This document shows positions 5,950 to 45,293 of a DNA stretch of 64,000 bases, piece by piece. This DNA comes from a virus. Its lineage: Duplodnaviria > Caudoviricetes. Every line of letters starts with the position of its first letter. The first letter of the stretch is position 1. The position numbers were made by a program, and so were the translations under genes. A model generated the notes under the pieces. It saw nothing but the letters and a program-made list of their open reading frames with translations. It had not been told where the DNA came from and did not search any database. The stretch spans positions 35,787-99,786 of IMG/VR virus record IMGVR_UViG_3300029305_003800. One strand, 5' to 3'.

Positions 5950-6453
5950 ATGAAAGACATTATTGATAAGTATAAAGAAAAAGAATCAAATATAGATGAA
6001 GTAAACTATCGTAGAAAATTGATAATTGGAACTATTGAACAACTATTAAAAAGAAATCAAAATTCTGATGGAGTTATAGATAATGAAAACTTTATGAGAA
6101 GTATTAGAGAAGAACTAAGAAAATACGAGTTTAGAAAACCTAATACAACCTTTTCAGAATTGTGTTATATCCTTCAAAAGTGTAATTCGTATGATGTTGC
6201 AAAATTTGTTTGTTATCCTTATATTATTGATGAAATAACTGACAAATTTATTTCATATTCAAATGACTATTTATTTCTTACAAATGGACTTGTTATGATA
6301 CAATACGATAAATCAGATAAAATACTTGAAATCAACACTTTTGATTACACAGATGTAAGTTCAAGTTCAGTAAATACCTTTTATAGAAATGTTGCATTTA
6401 GTGTAAAAGAAAATAGATTCAGAAGACTTATGGATTTTGTAAAGGAGAAATAG
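5950..6453 (+). CDS. hypothetical protein
   Basis: AAGGAG RBS; N-terminal part resembles that of the preceding ORF (IEQLL.RNQ..DGVIDNENF vs IENAL.KNQ..GNVIDNDDF). Confidence 0.65.
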   Translation: MKDIIDKYKEKESNIDEVNYRRKLIIGTIEQLLKRNQNSDGVIDNENFMRSIREELRKYEFRKPNTTFSELCYILQKCNSYDVAKFVCYPYIIDEITDKFISYSNDYLFLTNGLVMIQYDKSDKILEINTFDYTDVSSSSVNTFYRNVAFSVKENRFRRLMDFVKEK

Positions 6454-20482: not shown

Positions 20483-22888
20483 ATGTATGAAATATCTTTA
20501 TTTGAAGACATAAATCCAAGAAGTTCAAGAGATACTGATAAGAAATTAACAAGTAAATTGAGCGATAAGAAACCATCTTCAATTAAAGGTAACACAATAA
20601 GAGATAAGATGGAACTTATACAAAGAGAAGTAGAGAACCACTTATCTTTTTTATTTGATGTTACAGAAGAATGCAGATCGGAAGAAAGATTATCAAATTG
20701 CGTTGATAATTTTACACAGCAAGATAAAGGAACAGTTGATACAGAAACATTAGGTGTTGACTACTTTAACGACAAGATATTTGGATTTTCACTTTATGCA
20801 GAAGGAGATAAGTCAATTTATATTCCAGTATTACATAAGGGAATGGTCACAGGACAATTATTAGATGATCAATTAGAGAAGTCTCAAATAGCAAAACAAT
20901 TAGAGCGAATAAAAAACTCAAATACAAAATTATTATTCCACAACGGAAAATTTGATTTACACATGATATATCATAATTTTGGAGTTATGCTACCTATATA
21001 TTGGGATTCAATGATTGCTTCAAGATTATTACACAGTTCAGAGAAAGATCATTCACTTAAATATCAATATGCAGTTAAAGTAAAAGGTGAAACAGGAAAG
21101 TCATATAATTTTAAGAGTTTGTTTGATGGAGTGCCACCAGAAATGGTTCCTATTAAAACAATGACTCCATATGCTGCAGGAGATACATTTGAAACAATGG
21201 CATTACAGGAATTCCAGGAAAAAGAATTCAAAAAGTATCCAGGTATATATAAAGTATTTCAATTAGAAATGAAATTATTACCACTTCTGATAGAGATGGA
21301 AGAAAATGGTGTGAGCATTGATAAAGAACAATTAGATTACATGACAGAAAAATATACTAAAAAACTGCAGGATGCAATGAATGGTTGTTATAAAGAACTA
21401 GAAAAATATCAGGATAAATTAAATAGATTTAATTTACAACATCCAGGAAAATTAAGTAATCCTGTAAATCTTAGTAGTCCACAACAATTATCTATTATAC
21501 TTTATGATATTATAGGGATGGCAGAATTACCTAAATATAAGAGAGGAACAGGAAAAGAAGTCATCAAGGTATTTAAGGAAAAGAATGAATTCTGTAAAAG
21601 ATTGGCAGAAGTAAAAGAAGTAGAAAAGTTAGTTAATGGATTTATAAAATCAATTCCAAAATTTATTAGAGAAGATGGAAAGGTTCATTCAGATTTTGTT
21701 CAAGTAAAAGGGACAGGAAATACTTCTGAAGAAGATGAAGAGTCCGGAGCAGATACAGGTCGTTTTAGTTGTAAGGATCCAAATCTACAACAAATTCCAG
21801 GTAGAGGAGAAAAGTCAGAATTAAGAAAAATGTTCTGTGCAAGTCCGGGATATGTTATGTTTTCAAGCGACTATTCGCAGCAAGAACCTCGTATGTTGGC
21901 ACACTGCAGTCAGGATAAGGAAATGTTATCAGCATATAGAGAAGGAAAAGATTTATATGCTCTTATGGCATCAAAGATATATCATAAAACTTATGAAGAA
22001 TGTCTAGAATTCTATCCAGAAGGAACTAAAATAATTATAGATGGTAAAGAAGTTATCTGTGGAAAGAAAGAACACACAAACAAAGAAGGAAAAGCAAGAA
22101 GAAGTGCAACTAAGGCAGTGCTGCTCGGATTAATGTATGGCAGAGGACAAGCAAGTATCGCAGAACAGACAGGTTCAACTGTTGAAGAGGCAAAAGAACT
22201 TATTGACACATTCTATAACGAATTCCCAAATGTTAGAAAATGGATGACAAAAGTTGAAGAAGATTGTAGAAAGAATGGATATGTAGATACTATATTTGGA
22301 AGAAGAAGAGAACTACCAGATGCAATGTTACCAGAATATGCATTTAAGAGTAGAGGTGGAAAACCAAAAGGATTTAATCCTCTTGACTTTTCAATGACAG
22401 CAAGTAATGAGTTAGATTTTACTGTGGATGAAGAAACACAGAAATATTATATAAACAAATTACACAAAGCATTTGGATGGAAAGCAAAAGACGAAATAAT
22501 TCAACAAGCAAAAGCAGAAGGAATAGAAATAAAAGATAATAGTCAATATGTAGCAAAAGCAATGCGACAAGCAGTTAATTCAACAATTCAAGGTGGAAGT
22601 GCTGATATGAGCAAGTTAGCCATGTTGAAATGTTATGAAAATGAAGAGTTAAGAAGATTAGGATTTAGAATTCTATTCCCTGTTCACGATGAAATTATTG
22701 CTGAAGCACCAAAAGAAAATGCAAAAAGATGTGGAGAGTTAATGGCACAGTTAATGGTTGAAGCAGCAGCAGAAATTTGTCCATCAGTTCCTTATAAATG
22801 TGATGTAGAATATTTTGTAAATTGGGCAGGAGATTCATTGGACTATAATGAAGAAACAGGAGAGTGGTATGTAAAGGACTCTCATTAA
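20483..22888 (+). CDS. polA: DNA polymerase, family A (3'-5' exonuclease plus polymerase)
   Basis: DTET, HNGKFD, YAAGD exonuclease motifs; TGRFS..PNLQQIP, DYSQQEPR, RR..KAVLLGLMYG, VHDEI. Confidence 0.95.
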   Translation: MYEISLFEDINPRSSRDTDKKLTSKLSDKKPSSIKGNTIRDKMELIQREVENHLSFLFDVTEECRSEERLSNCVDNFTQQDKGTVDTETLGVDYFNDKIFGFSLYAEGDKSIYIPVLHKGMVTGQLLDDQLEKSQIAKQLERIKNSNTKLLFHNGKFDLHMIYHNFGVMLPIYWDSMIASRLLHSSEKDHSLKYQYAVKVKGETGKSYNFKSLFDGVPPEMVPIKTMTPYAAGDTFETMALQEFQEKEFKKYPGIYKVFQLEMKLLPLLIEMEENGVSIDKEQLDYMTEKYTKKLQDAMNGCYKELEKYQDKLNRFNLQHPGKLSNPVNLSSPQQLSIILYDIIGMAELPKYKRGTGKEVIKVFKEKNEFCKRLAEVKEVEKLVNGFIKSIPKFIREDGKVHSDFVQVKGTGNTSEEDEESGADTGRFSCKDPNLQQIPGRGEKSELRKMFCASPGYVMFSSDYSQQEPRMLAHCSQDKEMLSAYREGKDLYALMASKIYHKTYEECLEFYPEGTKIIIDGKEVICGKKEHTNKEGKARRSATKAVLLGLMYGRGQASIAEQTGSTVEEAKELIDTFYNEFPNVRKWMTKVEEDCRKNGYVDTIFGRRRELPDAMLPEYAFKSRGGKPKGFNPLDFSMTASNELDFTVDEETQKYYINKLHKAFGWKAKDEIIQQAKAEGIEIKDNSQYVAKAMRQAVNSTIQGGSADMSKLAMLKCYENEELRRLGFRILFPVHDEIIAEAPKENAKRCGELMAQLMVEAAAEICPSVPYKCDVEYFVNWAGDSLDYNEETGEWYVKDSH

Positions 22889-35605: not shown

Positions 35606-35889
35606 ATTCATTAATATGGAGTGATTATATGGAAGAAGAAATGATATCTGTAATAATGACAACTTTTGGTGTAGATGAACAGTTAGCACAGGAACTATTT
35701 AATAAGTGTGGTTACAATTTACGAAAGGTAAAGAGATATTTATCAAGGAGAGTAAAAGAAAAATTAGCACCAATAAAGTGTTTATGTTGTGGGAGAAAAT
35801 TAACAGATCCAAAATCAATAAAAAGAGGATATGGAGATGAATGTTACAAAAGAGTAAAATTCAATTATCATGAAGATTTATTTCAGTGA
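35602..35889 (+). CDS. DUF6011-like zinc-finger protein
   Basis: CLCCGRKLTDPKSIKRGYGDEC. Confidence 0.7.
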   Translation: MNSLIWSDYMEEEMISVIMTTFGVDEQLAQELFNKCGYNLRKVKRYLSRRVKEKLAPIKCLCCGRKLTDPKSIKRGYGDECYKRVKFNYHEDLFQ

Positions 35890-36971: not shown

Positions 36972-37847
36972 ATGGAAGATAATGAGATTATTATATCTAG
37001 TGATGAAATAGTATCTCAGAGTTTACCAGAGAATGTAAGAGAGTTTAGAAATAAACTTATAAAGTATAAAGTTCCTGAAGTAGATCAATATGGAGATGGA
37101 TTCCTTGCTCAAGCATATTTAGCAGCAAAGAGTTCTACAACAGGAACTTATGCTTCAATAAGGAAAGAATTAAAACTTGATAATCTGACATTTCAGTATT
37201 ATATGGAGAATTATCCTGACTTTGTTGCAGCAATAAAGATAGGATTATACGACAGTAGAAAAGAAAAGTTATCTGATTTAGAAGGATCATTGCTATCTAG
37301 AGCAATGGGAGTAGAGGTAGAAGAAACAAAGGTAGAAGAGTCTGGAATAGTTGATGAGGACGGTAATATGAAAAATATTGCTAGAAAGAAAACAGTCACT
37401 AAGAAACAAATTCCACCAGATGTAAATGCTATAATGACATTATTACAGAAGATGGATCCATCATATAATCCAAAATCAACATTAGATATAAATATAAATC
37501 AAACATTAAATGTAGAAGAAGATATAAATGTAAATGTTGATTATAGAATGTTGTCTACAACTGCAATAAAAGAATTGTTAGAAAGTAATAAACTACCTCA
37601 AAATAATGAAGTGAATAAAACTCCAGATGGAAAGTCAGTAAGATTCTTAGGTGAAGATGGAGAAAAGAAACTAGAGAAAAGAAGAGAAAAATTAGATACA
37701 TATAAAGAACAACGAAAAATAAGAGAACGAAAAGAAAAAGAAGAGAATAAAAACAAAAAGAAGAGAGTGATGTCTGCAGAAACCAGAGCGAAGATATCTG
37801 AAGCAATGAAGAATAGATATAAAAAGAATGTCACGGAGGAGAGTTAA
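36972..37847 (+). CDS. terminase small subunit-like protein with C-terminal NUMOD3-like motif
   Basis: YPDFVAAIK.G...LEGSLLSRAMG.EVEE...TKKQIPPDVNA; MSAETRAKISEAMK. Confidence 0.6.
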   Translation: MEDNEIIISSDEIVSQSLPENVREFRNKLIKYKVPEVDQYGDGFLAQAYLAAKSSTTGTYASIRKELKLDNLTFQYYMENYPDFVAAIKIGLYDSRKEKLSDLEGSLLSRAMGVEVEETKVEESGIVDEDGNMKNIARKKTVTKKQIPPDVNAIMTLLQKMDPSYNPKSTLDININQTLNVEEDINVNVDYRMLSTTAIKELLESNKLPQNNEVNKTPDGKSVRFLGEDGEKKLEKRREKLDTYKEQRKIRERKEKEENKNKKKRVMSAETRAKISEAMKNRYKKNVTEES

Positions 37848-38350
37848 TGCAGAAGTATTTAAGAGGTCAAATATGGTGGTGTAAGAATAGTTATGATGTA
37901 AATAACGGAGAAAGAGAGTTAGATCTAACTGATAAACAAAAATTATTTGATCACATACAGAAAGGTTCAAGACCAGTTTTAATTATATCAAACGACACAG
38001 GAAATAAATATTCAGACACATTACAGATAATTCCGTGCACAAGTTCAGAAAAGACAAATTTACCAACTCATTGTTCTTTATATATAAATAAAGTAAAAAA
38101 CACATTTTTATGTGAACAGATTAAAACAATTAATAAATCAGATTTAACAACATATTTAATAACCTTAGATGCTACAGAAATGGCAAAGATTGAAGAATGT
38201 TCTCAAATAGCATTGGGAATAATAAAACCAACACAATATACAAAAATATCTATTGGAGTTGAGCAAGAAGAAGAAAACATTAGAATAATTCAGGAGGAAG
38301 ATAATGGAAGAATTAACACAAACACAGATATTCATGATCGGAAAGATTAA
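37847..38350 (+). CDS. PemK/MazF-family endoribonuclease-like protein
   Basis: RGQIWW, QKGSRPVLIISND.GN, IIPCTS, LPTH, CEQIKTI.K. Confidence 0.82.
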   Translation: MQKYLRGQIWWCKNSYDVNNGERELDLTDKQKLFDHIQKGSRPVLIISNDTGNKYSDTLQIIPCTSSEKTNLPTHCSLYINKVKNTFLCEQIKTINKSDLTTYLITLDATEMAKIEECSQIALGIIKPTQYTKISIGVEQEEENIRIIQEEDNGRINTNTDIHDRKD

Positions 38351-39549: not shown

Positions 39550-39810
39550 ATGACTCGTGCGAAGTGGAAAGAAGAAGTGTTAGAATTTTTAGAATTAGTA
39601 GCAAAGAATCATTATGTAGATAAATCTAAAGCAAAGAGATTACTTGAAGAAAATGAAGAATTAGATAAAGTAGCAGAGCAAAAGAGAAAAAGTAATGAAA
39701 AGAGAAGATTAATGCAAAAGGTTAATGGCACTGAAACAATAAAAGTAAATAAAGCAAAGAATGAGGAATTGAAGTCATTATTGTCAAAAGCATTGGAGTG
39801 TATAGAATAA
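39550..39810 (+). CDS. hypothetical protein
   Basis: GAGGAGG RBS before ATG 39550. Confidence 0.55.
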   Translation: MTRAKWKEEVLEFLELVAKNHYVDKSKAKRLLEENEELDKVAEQKRKSNEKRRLMQKVNGTETIKVNKAKNEELKSLLSKALECIE

Positions 39811-39826
39811 TACACAAGGAGGATAT

Positions 39827-40009
39827 ATGAAAAGATGTCCTGTGTGTAATTCAGAAATGATAATTGAAGATACACACATAATAACAGTAAAATATAAAAT
39901 TGTAGGAGATAAAAGAGGAAAAAATCCTACAGTAGAAAAACCTAATGAGACAAATAAAATAAGTTCAAAGATGATATGTCAAAACTGTAAACATTCAGTG
40001 GAGATATAA
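39827..40009 (+). CDS. zinc-ribbon protein
   Basis: CPVC...CQNC; AGGAGG RBS. Confidence 0.6.
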   Translation: MKRCPVCNSEMIIEDTHIITVKYKIVGDKRGKNPTVEKPNETNKISSKMICQNCKHSVEI

Positions 40010-40011
40010 TT

Positions 40012-40350
40012 ATGAAGCAGTCTATTCTATTAAATAGACAATATTTGACAAATCTCATTAATCAAGAAATATTACCAAAATATAAATTATCTTTTAGAAT
40101 AATGAATAGTGAAACAACAAATTCAGTTTATATTAGATTTGCAATAATGAAGGGTGTAGAGATAACATTAAGAATATCAGATCATTTAGATACAAGAAAG
40201 AATATGAAGCAGTTCATAATAAATATAAACAATAAAATGACAAATTCTAAGAGAAAGTTGTTGGTAAGAACTATAATAAACAGCATAAAGTATGGACAAA
40301 GAATAAATGTATATAAACTATTGTCAAAAGGAGATGTAAATGAACAATAA
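40012..40350 (+). CDS. hypothetical protein
   Basis: S.TTNSVY...LRISDH motif. Confidence 0.6.
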   Translation: MKQSILLNRQYLTNLINQEILPKYKLSFRIMNSETTNSVYIRFAIMKGVEITLRISDHLDTRKNMKQFIININNKMTNSKRKLLVRTIINSIKYGQRINVYKLLSKGDVNEQ

Positions 40351-41656
40351 ATTACAAGAACTTCAAGAGATTGTAAATAAATTATCATCAACATCTTCAA
40401 GATTAGAAAAAGAGCAGATTATCAGAGACAATTCTAATAACTCTTATTTCATAGAGATGTGTAAATTCTTATACGATCCAATGATTGTAACAGGAATAAG
40501 TGATAAGAAGATGGAAAGGTCAGATAATTCGCTCTTTTTTAATGATTTATTTGAAGAAGAGATGGAATTTTTAGAAACTCTTGAATACTTAAAAGAACAC
40601 AACACAGGAACAAATGAAAGTGTTGATAAGATTTGTAAATATATAGCAAATCATAAAGAATATGAAGATCTATTAAAGAAGATATATACAAAGAGTCTAA
40701 AATTAGGAATAGACGCAACAACAATAAATAATGTTATGGGTGAAGGATTTATCAAAACATTTGATGTTATGCTTGCTGAAAACTATTTTGAAAATATAGA
40801 TATAGTTGAAGGAAAGTCATTTATATTAACAACTAAATTAGACGGCAACAGAATGTGTGCTGTAGTTGATGACGAAGGAGTAAAACTTTATACTCGTCAA
40901 GGACAACCATATAAAGATATGCCAGATATAGAGCATGAGTTAAATAGATTGCCAAAGGGATATTTATATGACGGGGAACTTATAGCAGACTTAGACATAG
41001 AAAACACAGAGGAATTATTTAGAGCAACTACAAGTGCAGTAAGAAAAGATGGCACAAAGACAGGAGTAATATTTCATATATTTGATATGGTTCCTGTTGA
41101 AGAGTTCTGGAAAGGTCAAGGCACAGAAACAACAACACAAAGAAAGTTAAGATTACATGATATATTTCAAAGAGCATGTCCAAAATTTAGATGGTTAAAT
41201 GAGGTTAAAATCTTATATCTAGGAAACGATACAAAAGAAATCAATAGATGGTTGGAAAATATAACTGCGACAGGTGGAGAGGGTGTAATGATAAATATAA
41301 CAGATGCTCCATACGAATGTAAGCGAACTAAAAATTTACTAAAAGTAAAGAAATTCAAAACAGCAGATGTAAAAGTATTAAATGTAAATTCTGGCACAGG
41401 AAGATTTGAAAACACACTTGGTAGCATTGCAGTAGAGTTTGAATATAAAGATAATAAATATACTTGTGATGTAGGATCTGGATTTACAGACGAACAAAGA
41501 GAAAAATATTGGAATAATAAAGAACTACTGCTAGGAAAAATAGTTGAGGTGAAGTATTTTGAAATATCACAAGATGCAGATGGAAAATATTCAATGAGAT
41601 TCCCTGTTTGGTTAGACAGAATAAGAGAAGAAAAAGATGAGATATCAATGTTTTAG
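40340..41656 (+). CDS. ATP-dependent DNA ligase
   Basis: KLDGNR, YDGEL, HIFDM, EGVM, LLKVK, VGSGF, RFPV. Confidence 0.93.
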   Translation: MNNKLQELQEIVNKLSSTSSRLEKEQIIRDNSNNSYFIEMCKFLYDPMIVTGISDKKMERSDNSLFFNDLFEEEMEFLETLEYLKEHNTGTNESVDKICKYIANHKEYEDLLKKIYTKSLKLGIDATTINNVMGEGFIKTFDVMLAENYFENIDIVEGKSFILTTKLDGNRMCAVVDDEGVKLYTRQGQPYKDMPDIEHELNRLPKGYLYDGELIADLDIENTEELFRATTSAVRKDGTKTGVIFHIFDMVPVEEFWKGQGTETTTQRKLRLHDIFQRACPKFRWLNEVKILYLGNDTKEINRWLENITATGGEGVMINITDAPYECKRTKNLLKVKKFKTADVKVLNVNSGTGRFENTLGSIAVEFEYKDNKYTCDVGSGFTDEQREKYWNNKELLLGKIVEVKYFEISQDADGKYSMRFPVWLDRIREEKDEISMF

Positions 41657-41682
41657 ATTATAATAAATTAGAGGAATAATTT

Positions 41683-41979
41683 ATGAGATTTAACAGAAGA
41701 TATACAAATGGCAGAATAATGGATGGTAGTATAGATTATATCTGTGAAAGAATTGCTACAACATATATAGAAACAGGAAGAACAATGCGAAGTTTAGCAA
41801 GCGAGTATAGATGTAGTCCATCAACAATATGCAATTATTTGAATAAATATGCAAGAAATCATTTACCTTATGATATGTATAAACAAGTTCAAAGTAGAGC
41901 AAGATTAAATAAGAATGAAGCATATGAAAATGGTCGCAGTGAGAATTACTATTCTGATGAGTTGGGGAGTTTAGATTAG
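41683..41979 (+). CDS. SpoIIID-like HTH protein
   Basis: DYICERIA..YIETGRTMRSLASEYRCSPSTICNYL parallels the SpoIIID N-terminal HTH. Confidence 0.6.
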   Translation: MRFNRRYTNGRIMDGSIDYICERIATTYIETGRTMRSLASEYRCSPSTICNYLNKYARNHLPYDMYKQVQSRARLNKNEAYENGRSENYYSDELGSLD

Positions 41980-41981
41980 TT

Positions 41982-42272
41982 ATGTTACAGATAGATAATG
42001 TAGTAAATCCTGGAGAAGATTTATATGTATTAATAGGTGGAGAAGATCCACTACATGCCAGTATAGAAAGATTCAGAGCAGATGAAATATCAATAGACAA
42101 AGAAGGAACAATTTATTATATAGATAAATCTAACTTTGTAGAGGATGTAAGAATATCAAATAAAAATGTAATAGGGAGAACATTTGATGAAGTAAATAAG
42201 ATACTTCATAAACTATTACACAGAGAATTAAAATGGGAGGAAATTGCAGTATGGAAGAGAAAAGAAAAGTAA
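41982..42272 (+). CDS. hypothetical protein
   Basis: packed ORF with GGGAG RBS. Confidence 0.55.
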   Translation: MLQIDNVVNPGEDLYVLIGGEDPLHASIERFRADEISIDKEGTIYYIDKSNFVEDVRISNKNVIGRTFDEVNKILHKLLHRELKWEEIAVWKRKEK

Positions 42273-42466
42273 AACCATACAAGGTGGTATATATTTGTGA
42301 CAGATGTAAGTCAGGAGAAATGACTCCTACAGGACAAGTATTTAATTTAGGTAAACCACAAATAGAGCATGTTTGTCCAGTTTGCGGATTTAGAAAATCA
42401 TTTACTGATAAATATCCAAAAATAGAGTTCAGAGAAATAAAATCCAGAAAAATTGAGGAGGAATAA
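42251..42466 (+). CDS. zinc-ribbon protein
   Basis: CDRC...HVCPVCG; GGAGG RBS. Confidence 0.6.
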   Translation: MEEKRKVKPYKVVYICDRCKSGEMTPTGQVFNLGKPQIEHVCPVCGFRKSFTDKYPKIEFREIKSRKIEEE

Positions 42467-42774
42467 TGACAAGAGAGCAATTAGAATGCATAGGTATAAA
42501 AGATCGCACAGGAACAGAAATAAGAAATGGTGATGTGTTTGAATATGAGAATACCTATGTAATTAGAAAAGATGCAGAGACAAGAGAATTCAATATATAC
42601 GAATATGAAAATCAAGTAGAATACGGAGTAGATGAAGAACCATATTTTATACTAGTAGGAATATATAGTATTACAGATGATGAAATAGATTTAACACAAG
42701 ATCAGATAAAAGGAAATATATTCATTGATTATAAAGAAATGTTAAATCAAATTCATGAAGAGGAGGATGAATAA
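42466..42774 (+). CDS. YopX-like protein
   Basis: CIGIKDRTGTEIRNGDV...KGNIF. Confidence 0.65.
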   Translation: MTREQLECIGIKDRTGTEIRNGDVFEYENTYVIRKDAETREFNIYEYENQVEYGVDEEPYFILVGIYSITDDEIDLTQDQIKGNIFIDYKEMLNQIHEEEDE

Positions 42775-42776
42775 TC

Positions 42777-43019
42777 TTGGACAGAAAGTTATCTGAATTT
42801 ATTTGCCGAGATAAAAGATTAAGAGCAGCAAGAATGGAGAATAAAGATTTATATTCAACATTTGCATCAGTATTATACGATATTCCATACGAAGAGTGTT
42901 TAGAATTCAAAGATGGAGAACCTTATATAGCAGGAAAGAAAAGAAGAGCATTCGCTAAGGCAGTAATATTAGCAATGTATTTTGGAAATTATGAAACAGT
43001 AAGAGGTATAATGAAGTGA
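42777..43019 (+). CDS. stand-alone paralog of the PolA fingers/motif B region (80 aa)
   Basis: DK......KDLY...AS..Y...YEECLEF...GK.RR...KAV.L shared with this phage's own polymerase; GAGGAGG RBS, TTG start. Confidence 0.75.
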   Translation: MDRKLSEFICRDKRLRAARMENKDLYSTFASVLYDIPYEECLEFKDGEPYIAGKKRRAFAKAVILAMYFGNYETVRGIMK

Positions 43020-43684
43020 GAGAATATATAAAAATAGAGACAGTATTCAAGAGAGGAGAAGATAAGAAACTAACAGAAGAATATAGATCTCCTGAAATAG
43101 AATACTTAAAAGACAATGAATGGGTATTTACAGAAAAGATAGATGGCACAAATATAAGAGTTCATTGGGACGGACACAAAGTAGAATTTGGTGGCAGAAC
43201 AGATAAAGCAGAAATACCAAAACACATATTAGCAAGACTAGAAGAACTATTTGCAGGCACAGTAAATGAAGAGATATTTGAACAATTATTCGCAGATAAA
43301 GATGTAATACTATTCGGAGAAGGATACGGAGAGAGAGTTCAAACAAATGGATACACAGAGTTTACAGACAACAAAGTAGATTTCATACTGTTTGACATCC
43401 TAGTAGATAATAAATATTGGTTAAAAAGAGACGCACTAGAAGACATAGCAAAACAATTAAACATAAAGATAGTTCCGATAGTTACAGTAGGCACAATAGA
43501 AGATGGCATAAAATATGTATTAAGTGCAAATAAAACATTCTTACAAAAATCAGGAAGAATACAAGAAGGAATAGTAGGAAAACCAGCAGTAGAAATGCAG
43601 GACAGAAATGGTAATAGAATAATAGTAAAAATAAAACTACAAGACTTCAATAAAGAATGGTTAGACAAACATTATAATAAATAA
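43016..43684 (+). CDS. RNA ligase (Rnl2-like nucleotidyltransferase)
   Basis: WVFTEKIDGTN, LFGEGYG, FILFDI, EGIV, IVKIK; no OB domain. Confidence 0.82.
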   Translation: MREYIKIETVFKRGEDKKLTEEYRSPEIEYLKDNEWVFTEKIDGTNIRVHWDGHKVEFGGRTDKAEIPKHILARLEELFAGTVNEEIFEQLFADKDVILFGEGYGERVQTNGYTEFTDNKVDFILFDILVDNKYWLKRDALEDIAKQLNIKIVPIVTVGTIEDGIKYVLSANKTFLQKSGRIQEGIVGKPAVEMQDRNGNRIIVKIKLQDFNKEWLDKHYNK

Positions 43685-43821
43685 TACAGTCTAGATCAGT
43701 AAATGTATTCTATTATAAGAATATAATAGAATAATACAACAGCAGAATTCAGAGTAATTATAATAGAATTTTTCTTCATATGAGGGAAAATAAAAGATCA
43801 TATAATCAAGGAGATAATAAT

Positions 43822-44493
43822 ATGGCAGTTAATAAGAAACAAACAAAACCAGAAGATAAATTAGATGCATTAATGTATTCAATGCAAATGTTCAATAGAC
43901 TATTCAATAAAGAGATAGAGTCAGATAAAGAGTTCACAGAAAGAATAAGCAAGATGACAAAGGAACAGTTAATTGGAGAAGTCTTACAATTAAAGGCACA
44001 ACTAAAAGATTTACTCTCTCAAAGAGAGCAGGACAACACAATAGCAAAAGCAATAAGAGAAGGAATGCAACAAGTAGCATTCTCAAACAGTCAATCAGGA
44101 TTAACAGTAGATAAATCATTTGTAGATACAGCAGTATCAAAAGTGTCTTTTGAAACAACAGATAAGATAAATGATAAAATAAAGTCAGAACAAAAGAGAA
44201 TGTCAACTGCATATAGATTCATACAAGAGTTAGAGAAATACAAAGCAACAAGACAACAAGAAATGTATTCAGGAGAATTAATAAAATTCTTGCATGTAAA
44301 TCCATATGACATGAGTGCAGAGTATTTAGAGCAAATGATAGATATAATGCATAGTGACATAGACAGACAGAACATATATAATCATGGATGGGATGATGCA
44401 CTTATAGAAGTGACAAAGAGAATAGATAAGAAGAATGTCAAGAAATTGCCAGACTATAGAGAGTTGAAATTTAATATCAAGGTAGATAAATAA
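43822..44493 (+). CDS. hypothetical protein
   Basis: AAGGAG RBS before ATG 43822. Confidence 0.65.
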   Translation: MAVNKKQTKPEDKLDALMYSMQMFNRLFNKEIESDKEFTERISKMTKEQLIGEVLQLKAQLKDLLSQREQDNTIAKAIREGMQQVAFSNSQSGLTVDKSFVDTAVSKVSFETTDKINDKIKSEQKRMSTAYRFIQELEKYKATRQQEMYSGELIKFLHVNPYDMSAEYLEQMIDIMHSDIDRQNIYNHGWDDALIEVTKRIDKKNVKKLPDYRELKFNIKVDK

Positions 44494-44554
44494 CACACAA
44501 AGCAGTTGAGCAAGATACGTAACTGCTTTATAATTATATAGGGAGATAAAAGAC

Positions 44555-44848
44555 ATGTGGCAACATATAGTAGATGCATTTACAAAACCAGAGTTAGAAA
44601 GATCATTTGTAGATAATTTAATTTTAGCAATTTGTATAGTTGTAATATTATTAGTTATAGCAGGAATAATATTCTTAATAGCATTATTAATTGACAAAAT
44701 TAAAAGAGATATATCGCATAAGAAAAGAATGAGTTGTAAGAATTGCAGATACAGTGGATTTAATTCATATAGATGCACTCACGATAAATGTATAGGATGT
44801 AAAGATTACGAAAAGGAGAATAAGAATGACAACAAAGGACAGGGATAA
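44555..44848 (+). CDS. membrane protein with Cys-rich tail
   Basis: one TM helix; CKNC...C....C..C. Confidence 0.6.
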   Translation: MWQHIVDAFTKPELERSFVDNLILAICIVVILLVIAGIIFLIALLIDKIKRDISHKKRMSCKNCRYSGFNSYRCTHDKCIGCKDYEKENKNDNKGQG

Positions 44849-45293
44849 CTTCTTTTCATTAATGGTATTTTATGATAAATTGACAACATGGAAAGATGAT
44901 AAAGAAAGTGAGATAACAGATAAAGATAGAACAAAATTAAAGATTATTACAGATACAATTCTTGCTATGTTAGTGCAATATAGAAAGCGAGAGGGAGAAA
45001 CTGCAATGAATGCAATACTTAATGAGAGTAGTAATTATAAATTTGCAATAATGAAGAAAGATGAGGAATTAGATTTATCTGGAACATTTGAATTAGATAT
45101 AGTTAAGTCAGCAATGAAACAGATTGCAAAAGAGGCAACAGCATGTGTATTCTGCGATAAGAAGAAACATGATAAATGTCCGTGGTTCACTCTTAATAAA
45201 TTTATGGGAGTAACAGAATATCCAGTTAAGAAAGGTGAGTGTCCGTATAAATTTGATGAAAGTGATTTATTCGATTTGGAGGACATGACATGA
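44826..45293 (+). CDS. hypothetical protein (C-terminal Cys cluster)
   Basis: AAGGAG RBS; CVFC...CP...CPY. Confidence 0.65.
   Translation: MTTKDRDNFFSLMVFYDKLTTWKDDKESEITDKDRTKLKIITDTILAMLVQYRKREGETAMNAILNESSNYKFAIMKKDEELDLSGTFELDIVKSAMKQIAKEATACVFCDKKKHDKCPWFTLNKFMGVTEYPVKKGECPYKFDESDLFDLEDMT

Follow-up and report, generated by a model that had tools for sequence, protein, structure and literature searches.

The stretch analysed here (the window) is a 64,000-nucleotide DNA of a Caudoviricetes virus, the final 64 kb (positions 35,787 to 99,786) of the 99,786-bp IMG/VR record IMGVR_UViG_3300029305_003800, with a G+C content of about 30%, and the element in question is an 80-codon open reading frame (ORF), referred to as g80, which runs on the plus strand from a TTG start at 42777 to a TGA stop at 43017-43019. 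The strong ribosome-binding site seen in the initial annotation was found again as a Shine-Dalgarno (SD) motif that is conserved in relatives, and so was the overlap with the next gene, since the TGA stop overlaps the GTG start at 43016 by 4 nt as GTGA. The G+C content of g80 equals that of the phage genome. The features needed first are as follows.

42760..42766, plus strand: Shine-Dalgarno motif GAGGAGG, read in the sequence, 10 nt 5′ of the g80 start
42777..43019, plus strand: g80, stand-alone fingertip protein of DNA polymerase A (PolA) type, 80 amino acids (aa), assigned from sequence, homology, selection, structure and tree
21881..22141, plus strand: homologous segment of the phage's own PolA, residues 467-553, a distant paralogue and not the source of a recent copy

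The own PolA of this phage is a family A polymerase of 801 aa (20483-22888), uninterrupted, with a PF00476 domain (E 4e-84) plus a 3′-5′ exonuclease domain. By BLASTP, g80 residues 11-70 were aligned with PolA residues 477-553 at 40% identity (E 2e-12) with 17 gap positions, the extra residues being on the PolA side, and the ungapped register extends to g80 residue 1, which corresponds to PolA Q467 directly after the DYSQ of motif A. At the DNA level the two segments were about 51% identical, near saturation. Foreign PolAs were nearer to g80 and were aligned to it without a gap, namely those of Dp-1 (46%), phiCTP1 (45%) and the Clostridium sporogenes phages (44%). Because of these ungapped alignments, the 17 extra residues are better read as an insertion peculiar to the own PolA lineage than as a deletion in g80, and the statement in the initial annotation that g80 had dropped an internal insertion has to be given up. 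The insertion (about 17 residues; window 22012-22095, PolA about 511-538) is placed in the loop that joins helix N to helix O (..YPEGTKIIIDGKEVICGKKEHTNKEGKA..). It was common to a few other polymerases (P0110, P0126 and P0143) and was present neither in most relatives nor in any of the short stand-alone proteins described below. One of these, P0003, shares with g80 the length of 80 aa and a C-terminal tail that is without counterpart in PolA. Judged by these alignments, g80 is an old separate gene and no recent copy of the phage's own polymerase. The use of g80 DNA as a repair template for endonuclease cuts in polA was also considered and was rejected, as its identity to the own polA DNA was so low.

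A search of 1.84 billion representative proteins with a three-orthologue profile yielded 330 matches, the best 150 of which comprised 34 stand-alone proteins (73-143 aa), 73 polymerases of at least 500 aa and, for the rest, polymerase fragments. The top matches were short proteins aligned from their first residue, so ORFs of about 80 aa similar to g80 do exist as independent genes. Three subgroups of these mini-proteins were seen: the first begins with MD[KR][KR][LV], as g80 does, the second has an unrelated N-terminal stretch of 20 residues, and the third carries an ECGG motif with a Cys-rich tail in some members. In the ECGG subgroup (P0144 and P0153, on contigs up to 193 kb and 407 kb) the Cys-rich C-terminal extension is possibly a metal-binding module, and the P0153 cluster holds 44 near-identical members. 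A word-indexed search with a 29-sequence profile added only three further members. All eight family genes whose DNA was obtained (the g80 orthologues in contigs L003 and L007 and six others) have an SD sequence and start codon of their own.

The contigs of the traced family members are uncultured and phage-like, 29-407 kb long, and no neighbouring gene is conserved among them: P0003 was found beside a CCA-adding-type nucleotidyltransferase, P0010 beside ThyX, and P0005 beside NrdD/NrdG and a flavoprotein, while P0144 and P0155 sit in arrays of small unknown ORFs. The gene for P0003 (80 aa; L016 6719-8243, on a 150-kb contig) directly follows the PolyA_pol/CCA-adding-type nucleotidyltransferase gene, and upstream of it in L016 lie Mom-like, N6/N4 methyltransferase and S-adenosylmethionine synthetase genes. 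On the 83-kb contig of P0004, a syntenic relative of the source phage, a full PolA lies about 20 kb from the mini-protein gene. Two further features were observed on that contig: the DNA ligase was called as three ORFs with weak Hint/intein matches (L018 3644-6361), and the PolA (G001:C3 78313-80751) forms one open frame of 1124 aa in which Pfam profile positions 115 and 123 are set apart by an in-frame gap of about 340 aa. Inteins may explain both.

The family proteins are labelled "hypothetical protein" or left unnamed in their source databases, and no dedicated family model was found in Pfam, PHROGs v4 or NCBIfam, where g80 gave only weak local matches to polymerase models (PHROG phrog_17, E 5e-4; NCBIfam NF011541, E 2e-6). 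Against 50,697 GenBank phage records, g80, P0028, P0144 and P0010 matched only full-length polymerases or nothing, so that no cultured carrier was found, and megablast of the g80 locus against the GenBank phage records gave no match. A pattern scan of IMG/VR with the three orthologues returned eight loci, all of them longer PolA frames (307-663 aa, some cut by contig ends) and none a stand-alone gene. In the ESM Atlas the nearest clusters were small viral proteins named "DNA polymerase", with nothing beyond homology. No description of stand-alone polymerase fingertips was found in the literature searched, and none is given in the PolA reclassification (PMC10201439). g80 is thus a known domain that lives as a free, conserved and hitherto undescribed gene family.

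Evidence for selection came from two orthologues of g80, P0001 (91% identical) and P0002 (75% identical, on 11 contigs of up to 99 kb). Both retain exactly 80 codons, a TTG or GTG start and an SD sequence, which in L003 and L007 is the same motif as the GAGGAGG of g80, and they share with g80 the upstream order of DNA ligase, four small ORFs and then the gene itself. The ratio of nonsynonymous to synonymous substitution rates (dN/dS, Nei-Gojobori) was 0.19 between g80 and L007, with 7 amino acid changes seen against 14.9 expected when the same substitutions were placed at random positions (P < 5e-5), and 0.35 between g80 and L003, with 20 changes against 28.6 expected (P = 2e-4). Under this random placement the frame stayed stop-free with a probability of 0.28 when g80 was compared with L007 and of 0.07 when it was compared with L003. 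These ratios lie inside the range of the neighbouring genes (0.03-0.67), and no insertion or deletion was seen over the 80 codons at 16% DNA divergence. A second, distant lineage gave a similar result: P0005 and P0179 differ at 18 sites, 10 of them at third positions, with 8 amino acid changes against 13.2 expected (P 0.0026). Contigs carrying identical proteins (L023/L024, L016/L017 and L003-L006) were identical in DNA too and added no information on selection. The initial annotation had named four observations that would speak against an independent gene, and three of these were looked for; independent homologues exist, dN/dS is 0.19-0.35 and not about 1, and no polA remnant lies adjacent to g80, which bears out its view of an independent selected gene rather than a decaying fragment. 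We are highly confident that g80 is a real selected gene of a stand-alone family.

In order to place the family relative to the polymerases, a careful maximum-likelihood tree was built from the shared segment. A single branch parted the 34 stand-alone proteins, g80 included, from 31 full-length polymerases with an ultrafast bootstrap (UFBoot) support of 98 and an SH-aLRT (Shimodaira-Hasegawa-like approximate likelihood-ratio test) value of 68; the split between mini-proteins and polymerases was thus found in 98% of the bootstrap trees, and the phage's own PolA was placed among the polymerases. An earlier quick tree gave the same picture. As far as this shared segment tells, the family is separate from the polymerases. 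The initial annotation had described g80 as an 80-aa stand-alone copy of the phage's own polymerase fingers, and its first half stands, as g80 is a stand-alone ORF for PolA fingers; its second half falls with the DNA identity of about 51%, the nearer foreign PolAs, the separate clade and an approximately unbiased (AU) test p of 0.04 for joining g80 with the own PolA.

The structure of g80 was predicted by AlphaFold2 from a 29-sequence alignment with a mean predicted local distance difference test (pLDDT) score of 94.4 and a predicted template modelling (pTM) score of 0.81. The model has helices at residues 3-9, 13-20, 25-34, 38-41, 51-68 and 72-79 and a hairpin at 44-49. When the model was compared with the Protein Data Bank (PDB) by Foldseek, all 45 top rows among the matches listed were family A polymerases, and the top seven VIA-align matches were all PolA fingers, including Taq 612-690 (Z 7.1, root-mean-square deviation 2.4 Å, 69 residues aligned) and Klenow 707-785 (Z 4.7, 2.1 Å), the latter corresponding to model residues 1-80. 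The predicted fold is therefore that of the PolA fingers, in agreement with the likeness first read from the letters. Searching the PDB sequences with either g80 or the profile of the family gave nothing meaningful, and the Klenow register was obtained by combining the HMMER alignment of the own PolA and Klenow with the BLASTP alignment of g80 and the own PolA. In this register g80 M1, D2, D24 and Y26 correspond to Klenow I709, E710, D732 and H734, R56/R57 to R754/R755, and K61, L65 and F69 to K758, F762 and Y766, respectively. A homodimer prediction with two copies of g80 scored 0.02 against a mark of 0.42 and was used neither for nor against any reading. The parts of the protein are laid out in the gene as follows.

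42783..42836, plus strand: residues 3-20, a pair of short helices that match L and M of Klenow, assigned with the AlphaFold2 model, M1/D2 lying just after motif A
42846..42878, plus strand: residues 24-34, helix N, with invariant D24 and near-invariant Y26 and A30, assigned from conservation and the AlphaFold2 model
42885..42935, plus strand: residues 37-53, fingertip loop and hairpin (PYEECLEF..DG.P...G), with Y38, C41, E43 and G53 conserved in mini-proteins and related PolAs
42927..42980, plus strand: residues 51-68, O-helix, with R56/R57 at 42942-42947 and K61 at 42957-42959
42981..43016, plus strand: residues 69-80, F69 and the C-terminal helix 72-79, a tail common to P0003-type members and unlike PolA

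Across 29 mini-proteins D24, R57 and K61 were invariant, and Y26, A30, Y38, C41 and G53 nearly so; the motif B Arg and Lys, which the initial annotation had reported as kept in g80, are thus invariant throughout the family. A column-wise comparison was then made between 33 mini-proteins and 73 related polymerases. D24, Y26, A30, Y38, C41, E43, G53, R56, R57 and K61 were kept in both groups, whereas D12, A18, G22, L65, G66 and Y69 were kept only in the polymerases: position 65 is Leu in 39% of the family against 99% of the related PolAs, and position 69 is Phe in 30% of the family where 96% of the related PolAs have Tyr. Because of this column comparison, the family is taken, at the level of sequence, to retain the triphosphate-contacting face and the fingertip hairpin, with the positions that sense the nascent base pair (F762, G763 and Y766) released from constraint.

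g80 is therefore homologous in sequence and predicted fold to the fingers of family A polymerases (helices L-O and motif B; PF00476), with the O-helix Arg/Lys and the helix-N triphosphate-contact residue kept. It differs from them in being a free protein of 80 aa without palm, thumb, exonuclease or catalytic Asp (Klenow D705 of motif A and D882 of motif C); it starts at the Klenow I709 position after DYSQ and ends near 785, its positions equivalent to Y766 and F762 are unconstrained among the mini-proteins, and it falls in a separate clade. The absence of a catalytic palm, already stated in the initial annotation, was confirmed in that PF00476 does not match g80 and no motif C is present. In some T7-like cyanophages a family A polymerase domain is likewise a separate gene, but there the exonuclease and polymerase genes are adjacent and rebuild one enzyme (PMC10201439), whereas g80 is a diverged extra beside a complete PolA. 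In concept g80 resembles domain-excerpt "micro-proteins" and phage decoys or sponges, as a small single-domain derivative of a larger protein, kept by selection and plausibly acting by binding and not by catalysis. The fold searches with g80 gave only polymerases at the top and nothing like the known sponge folds, which does not argue against such a role.

In the window g80 is flanked by a YopX-like ORF and an RNA ligase gene, and every gene around it is on the plus strand.

43016..43684, plus strand: RNA ligase gene (Pfam PF09414, E 5e-22), whose GTG start overlaps the g80 stop; given as context only

The RNA ligase was missing after g80 in the gene maps of the L003-L006 relatives. In L003 a 141-nt spacer (6244-6384) follows g80 and leads to the next shared gene, and the ligase is translationally coupled to g80 in the window and in L007; its presence or absence is thus an insertion or deletion polymorphism exactly at the g80 stop. 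A role of g80 as a mere leader ORF for the RNA ligase was rejected, because the P0002 phages keep g80 without the ligase. No other PolA-like remnant was found within 41000-45000 in any frame, no homing endonuclease or intron lies beside g80, and Rfam detected no group I intron in the window, where its sole gathering-level match was a tRNA gene at 49182-49265 (RF00005, 59 bits). A scan of 39800-45000 found promoter-like sites at the level of chance for AT-rich DNA and no plus-strand terminator. A gene of PemK/MazF-like toxin fold (37847-38350; Pfam E 6e-19) lies within the early region and occupies the same place in the relatives L003 and L018.

Related polymerase genes offer clues to how such a family may have arisen. 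In the contig L020 (2310-7361) PolA is present in three frames of 527, 117 and 345 aa, parted by two GIY-YIG homing-endonuclease genes. The cuts lie in motif A (DY/..QEPR, the stroke marking the cut) and motif B (..VLG/ICYG), so VDY stands close to the end of the first piece, the middle piece spans QEPR to ..VLG and the third begins with ICYG. Rfam did not recognise an intron in L020, and hence we call these endonuclease-containing insertions only; in Firmicute phages, PolA genes are known to be interrupted by group I introns, one to three in number, that carry endonucleases (PMC11878797). The motif A junction was common to six representative clusters. Many polymerase fragments in the match list stop right after the ..ILLG of motif B with similar read-through tails, and others consist of junk followed by QEPR. 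The tails past the motif B site were alike in several unrelated contigs (e.g., ..N[IL]VN.ITH.C), which suggests a conserved inserted element.

The initiator Met of g80 and of the MDKKL-type members corresponds to the Q of QEPR, about 1-3 residues from the first insertion site, and similarity across the family fades 4-14 residues past the second. The middle piece of an endonuclease-split PolA (L020; cf. Bastillevirinae and SPO1, PMC11878797) therefore covers nearly the same segment as g80, with the N-terminal boundary within about 1-3 residues. Such middle pieces are bordered by endonuclease genes and the remaining PolA parts, and the tree groups them with the polymerases; g80, on the other hand, lies 20 kb from an intact PolA with an SD sequence and start of its own and with neither endonuclease nor intron beside it. 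These sequence boundaries suggest that the family was born from an endonuclease-delimited segment of a polymerase gene, and we regard a single origin near that segment as evenly balanced.

On this basis we propose that g80 is a working accessory gene of an old family whose proteins hold nothing of a family A polymerase but its mobile fingertip (helices L, M, N and O and a short tail). The family would have a single origin, in the part of a polymerase gene bounded by two recurrent insertion sites of homing endonucleases, in motifs A and B. As g80 has no palm it cannot polymerise, and it would be a non-catalytic module whose ancestral "nucleotide entry" face binds a nucleoside triphosphate or a similar phosphate-rich ligand. 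It would act early in infection, or while nucleotides are being metabolised, and would serve to bind, buffer or sense its ligand, not as an enzyme. In favour of ligand binding, no surface residues other than the ancestral triphosphate binders are invariant. A synthetic 50-residue Klenow peptide (about 728-777, with the O-helix) was reportedly found to bind deoxynucleoside triphosphates (dNTPs) in the Mildvan laboratory around 1989. The O-helix alone forms a nucleotide entry site in a related single-subunit polymerase (PMC11335763). The explanation as a whole, with accessory gene, family origin and phosphate-ligand binding together, is put forward tentatively, as clearly short of an even chance; the binding of a small phosphate-rich ligand such as a (d)NTP as the actual mechanism is, from the residues kept, possible and slightly more doubtful than that.

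Several observations weigh against this proposal. The tree rests on a short alignment of 94 columns, and forcing g80 and its two orthologues together with the own PolA costs 42 log-likelihood units at a p-AU of 0.04, which is marginal; the AU test on the quick tree was uninformative, as the free search had not converged, and it was for this that the test was repeated on the careful tree. At the C-terminal boundary the match is not exact, since g80 extends 14 residues past the second endonuclease site. An isolated fingertip may bind only weakly, because a real polymerase depends on the palm metals and the primer-template as well for tight dNTP binding. In the parent domain, too, no residues are more conserved than the invariant Arg and Lys, which might just as well contact a protein or a nucleic acid. 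The net charge ranges from -12 to +10 across the family with no common electrostatic theme, and no conserved neighbour points to a pathway.

Among the alternatives, the free fingertip could be a protein-level mimic of the conserved surface that the polymerase exposes, and could titrate a macromolecule docking there, whether a replisome partner or, from the host, an immune sensor or inhibitor directed at phage PolA, and so protect or tune the polymerase. The residues conserved in the mini-proteins are indeed largely those conserved on the PolA fingertip, their genes lie in small accessory-ORF arrays typical of early or counter-defence regions, their tails and overall charge are variable and their distribution is patchy. 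Furthermore, Borvo, AbiQ and DarTG are escaped by phage DNA polymerase mutations (PMC11348598; 10.1101/2022.08.27.505566), and Borvo is a system shown to be triggered by phage DNA polymerase (10.1101/2022.08.27.505566). However, Borvo, the one polymerase-sensing system with mapped determinants, is escaped through mutations in the proofreading cleft and not in the fingers (10.1101/2022.08.27.505566), so the decoy idea loses its best precedent, and g80 is a poor likeness of the co-resident PolA, at 40% identity and without its 17-residue fingertip insertion. We consider this mimicry unlikely. The small nucleotide-binding protein that the initial annotation had offered beside its decoy fits the conservation pattern somewhat better than the decoy does.

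Equally improbable in our estimate is a new role apart from the ancestral nucleotide face, such as a structural adaptor or a nucleic-acid-binding factor, in which the Arg and Lys serve another contact. In some subgroups (P0022, P0144 and P0153) the L-M helices give way to an N-terminal part of unrelated sequence, or tails that are helical or rich in Cys are added, and this variation suggests that the fingertip serves as a module in more than one context; several members are also basic, with pI 9-9.7, but others are strongly acidic, and the only invariant surface residues are the ancestral phosphate binders. We give a similarly low chance to the idea that an endonuclease-bounded polymerase segment, turned into a free gene family, would serve counter-defence through its nucleotide-entry face, acting as a sponge that takes up an immune signal or substrate of nucleotide type, or else as a decoy for a replicase sensor. 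If true, a new class of anti-immune mini-proteins would be tied in its origin to the activity of selfish elements in polymerase genes.

If g80 were a polymerase exon left behind without function after recombination or homing-endonuclease activity, its frame still open by chance, the coincidence of its N-terminus with an endonuclease insertion site in related PolA genes would be accounted for. This reading is strongly disfavoured and in our judgement very improbable, as the substitutions depart from random placement (dN/dS 0.19-0.35, P ≤ 2e-4; P 0.0026 in the second lineage), indels are absent, the SD and start are conserved, 34 diverged stand-alone representatives share invariant residues, and no endonuclease, intron or PolA remnant lies beside g80. 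Least probable of all is a spare or poison "middle piece" that inserts into the fragmented PolA of a co-infecting phage or blocks its assembly. PolA genes in three parts with nearly the same boundaries do exist, and in Firmicute phages one to three introns often interrupt PolA (PMC11878797). In most cases, however, the inserted elements are self-splicing introns whose removal leaves a single mRNA (PMC11878797), so that assembly at the protein level would not be needed; the own PolA is uninterrupted, and nothing points to trans assembly.

Few enzymes have been studied as thoroughly as the family A polymerases, yet a free-standing fingertip kept by selection was not found described. The coincidence of the g80 N-terminus with the endonuclease site offers a concrete route by which mobile elements may create new genes from pieces of essential ones. 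The mini-proteins are short, have a confidently predicted fold and can be expressed with ease. If they bind nucleotides or a polymerase partner, they would represent a natural minimal nucleotide-entry module and a new kind of phage accessory factor, present in large uncultured phage-like contigs including those of 400 kb.

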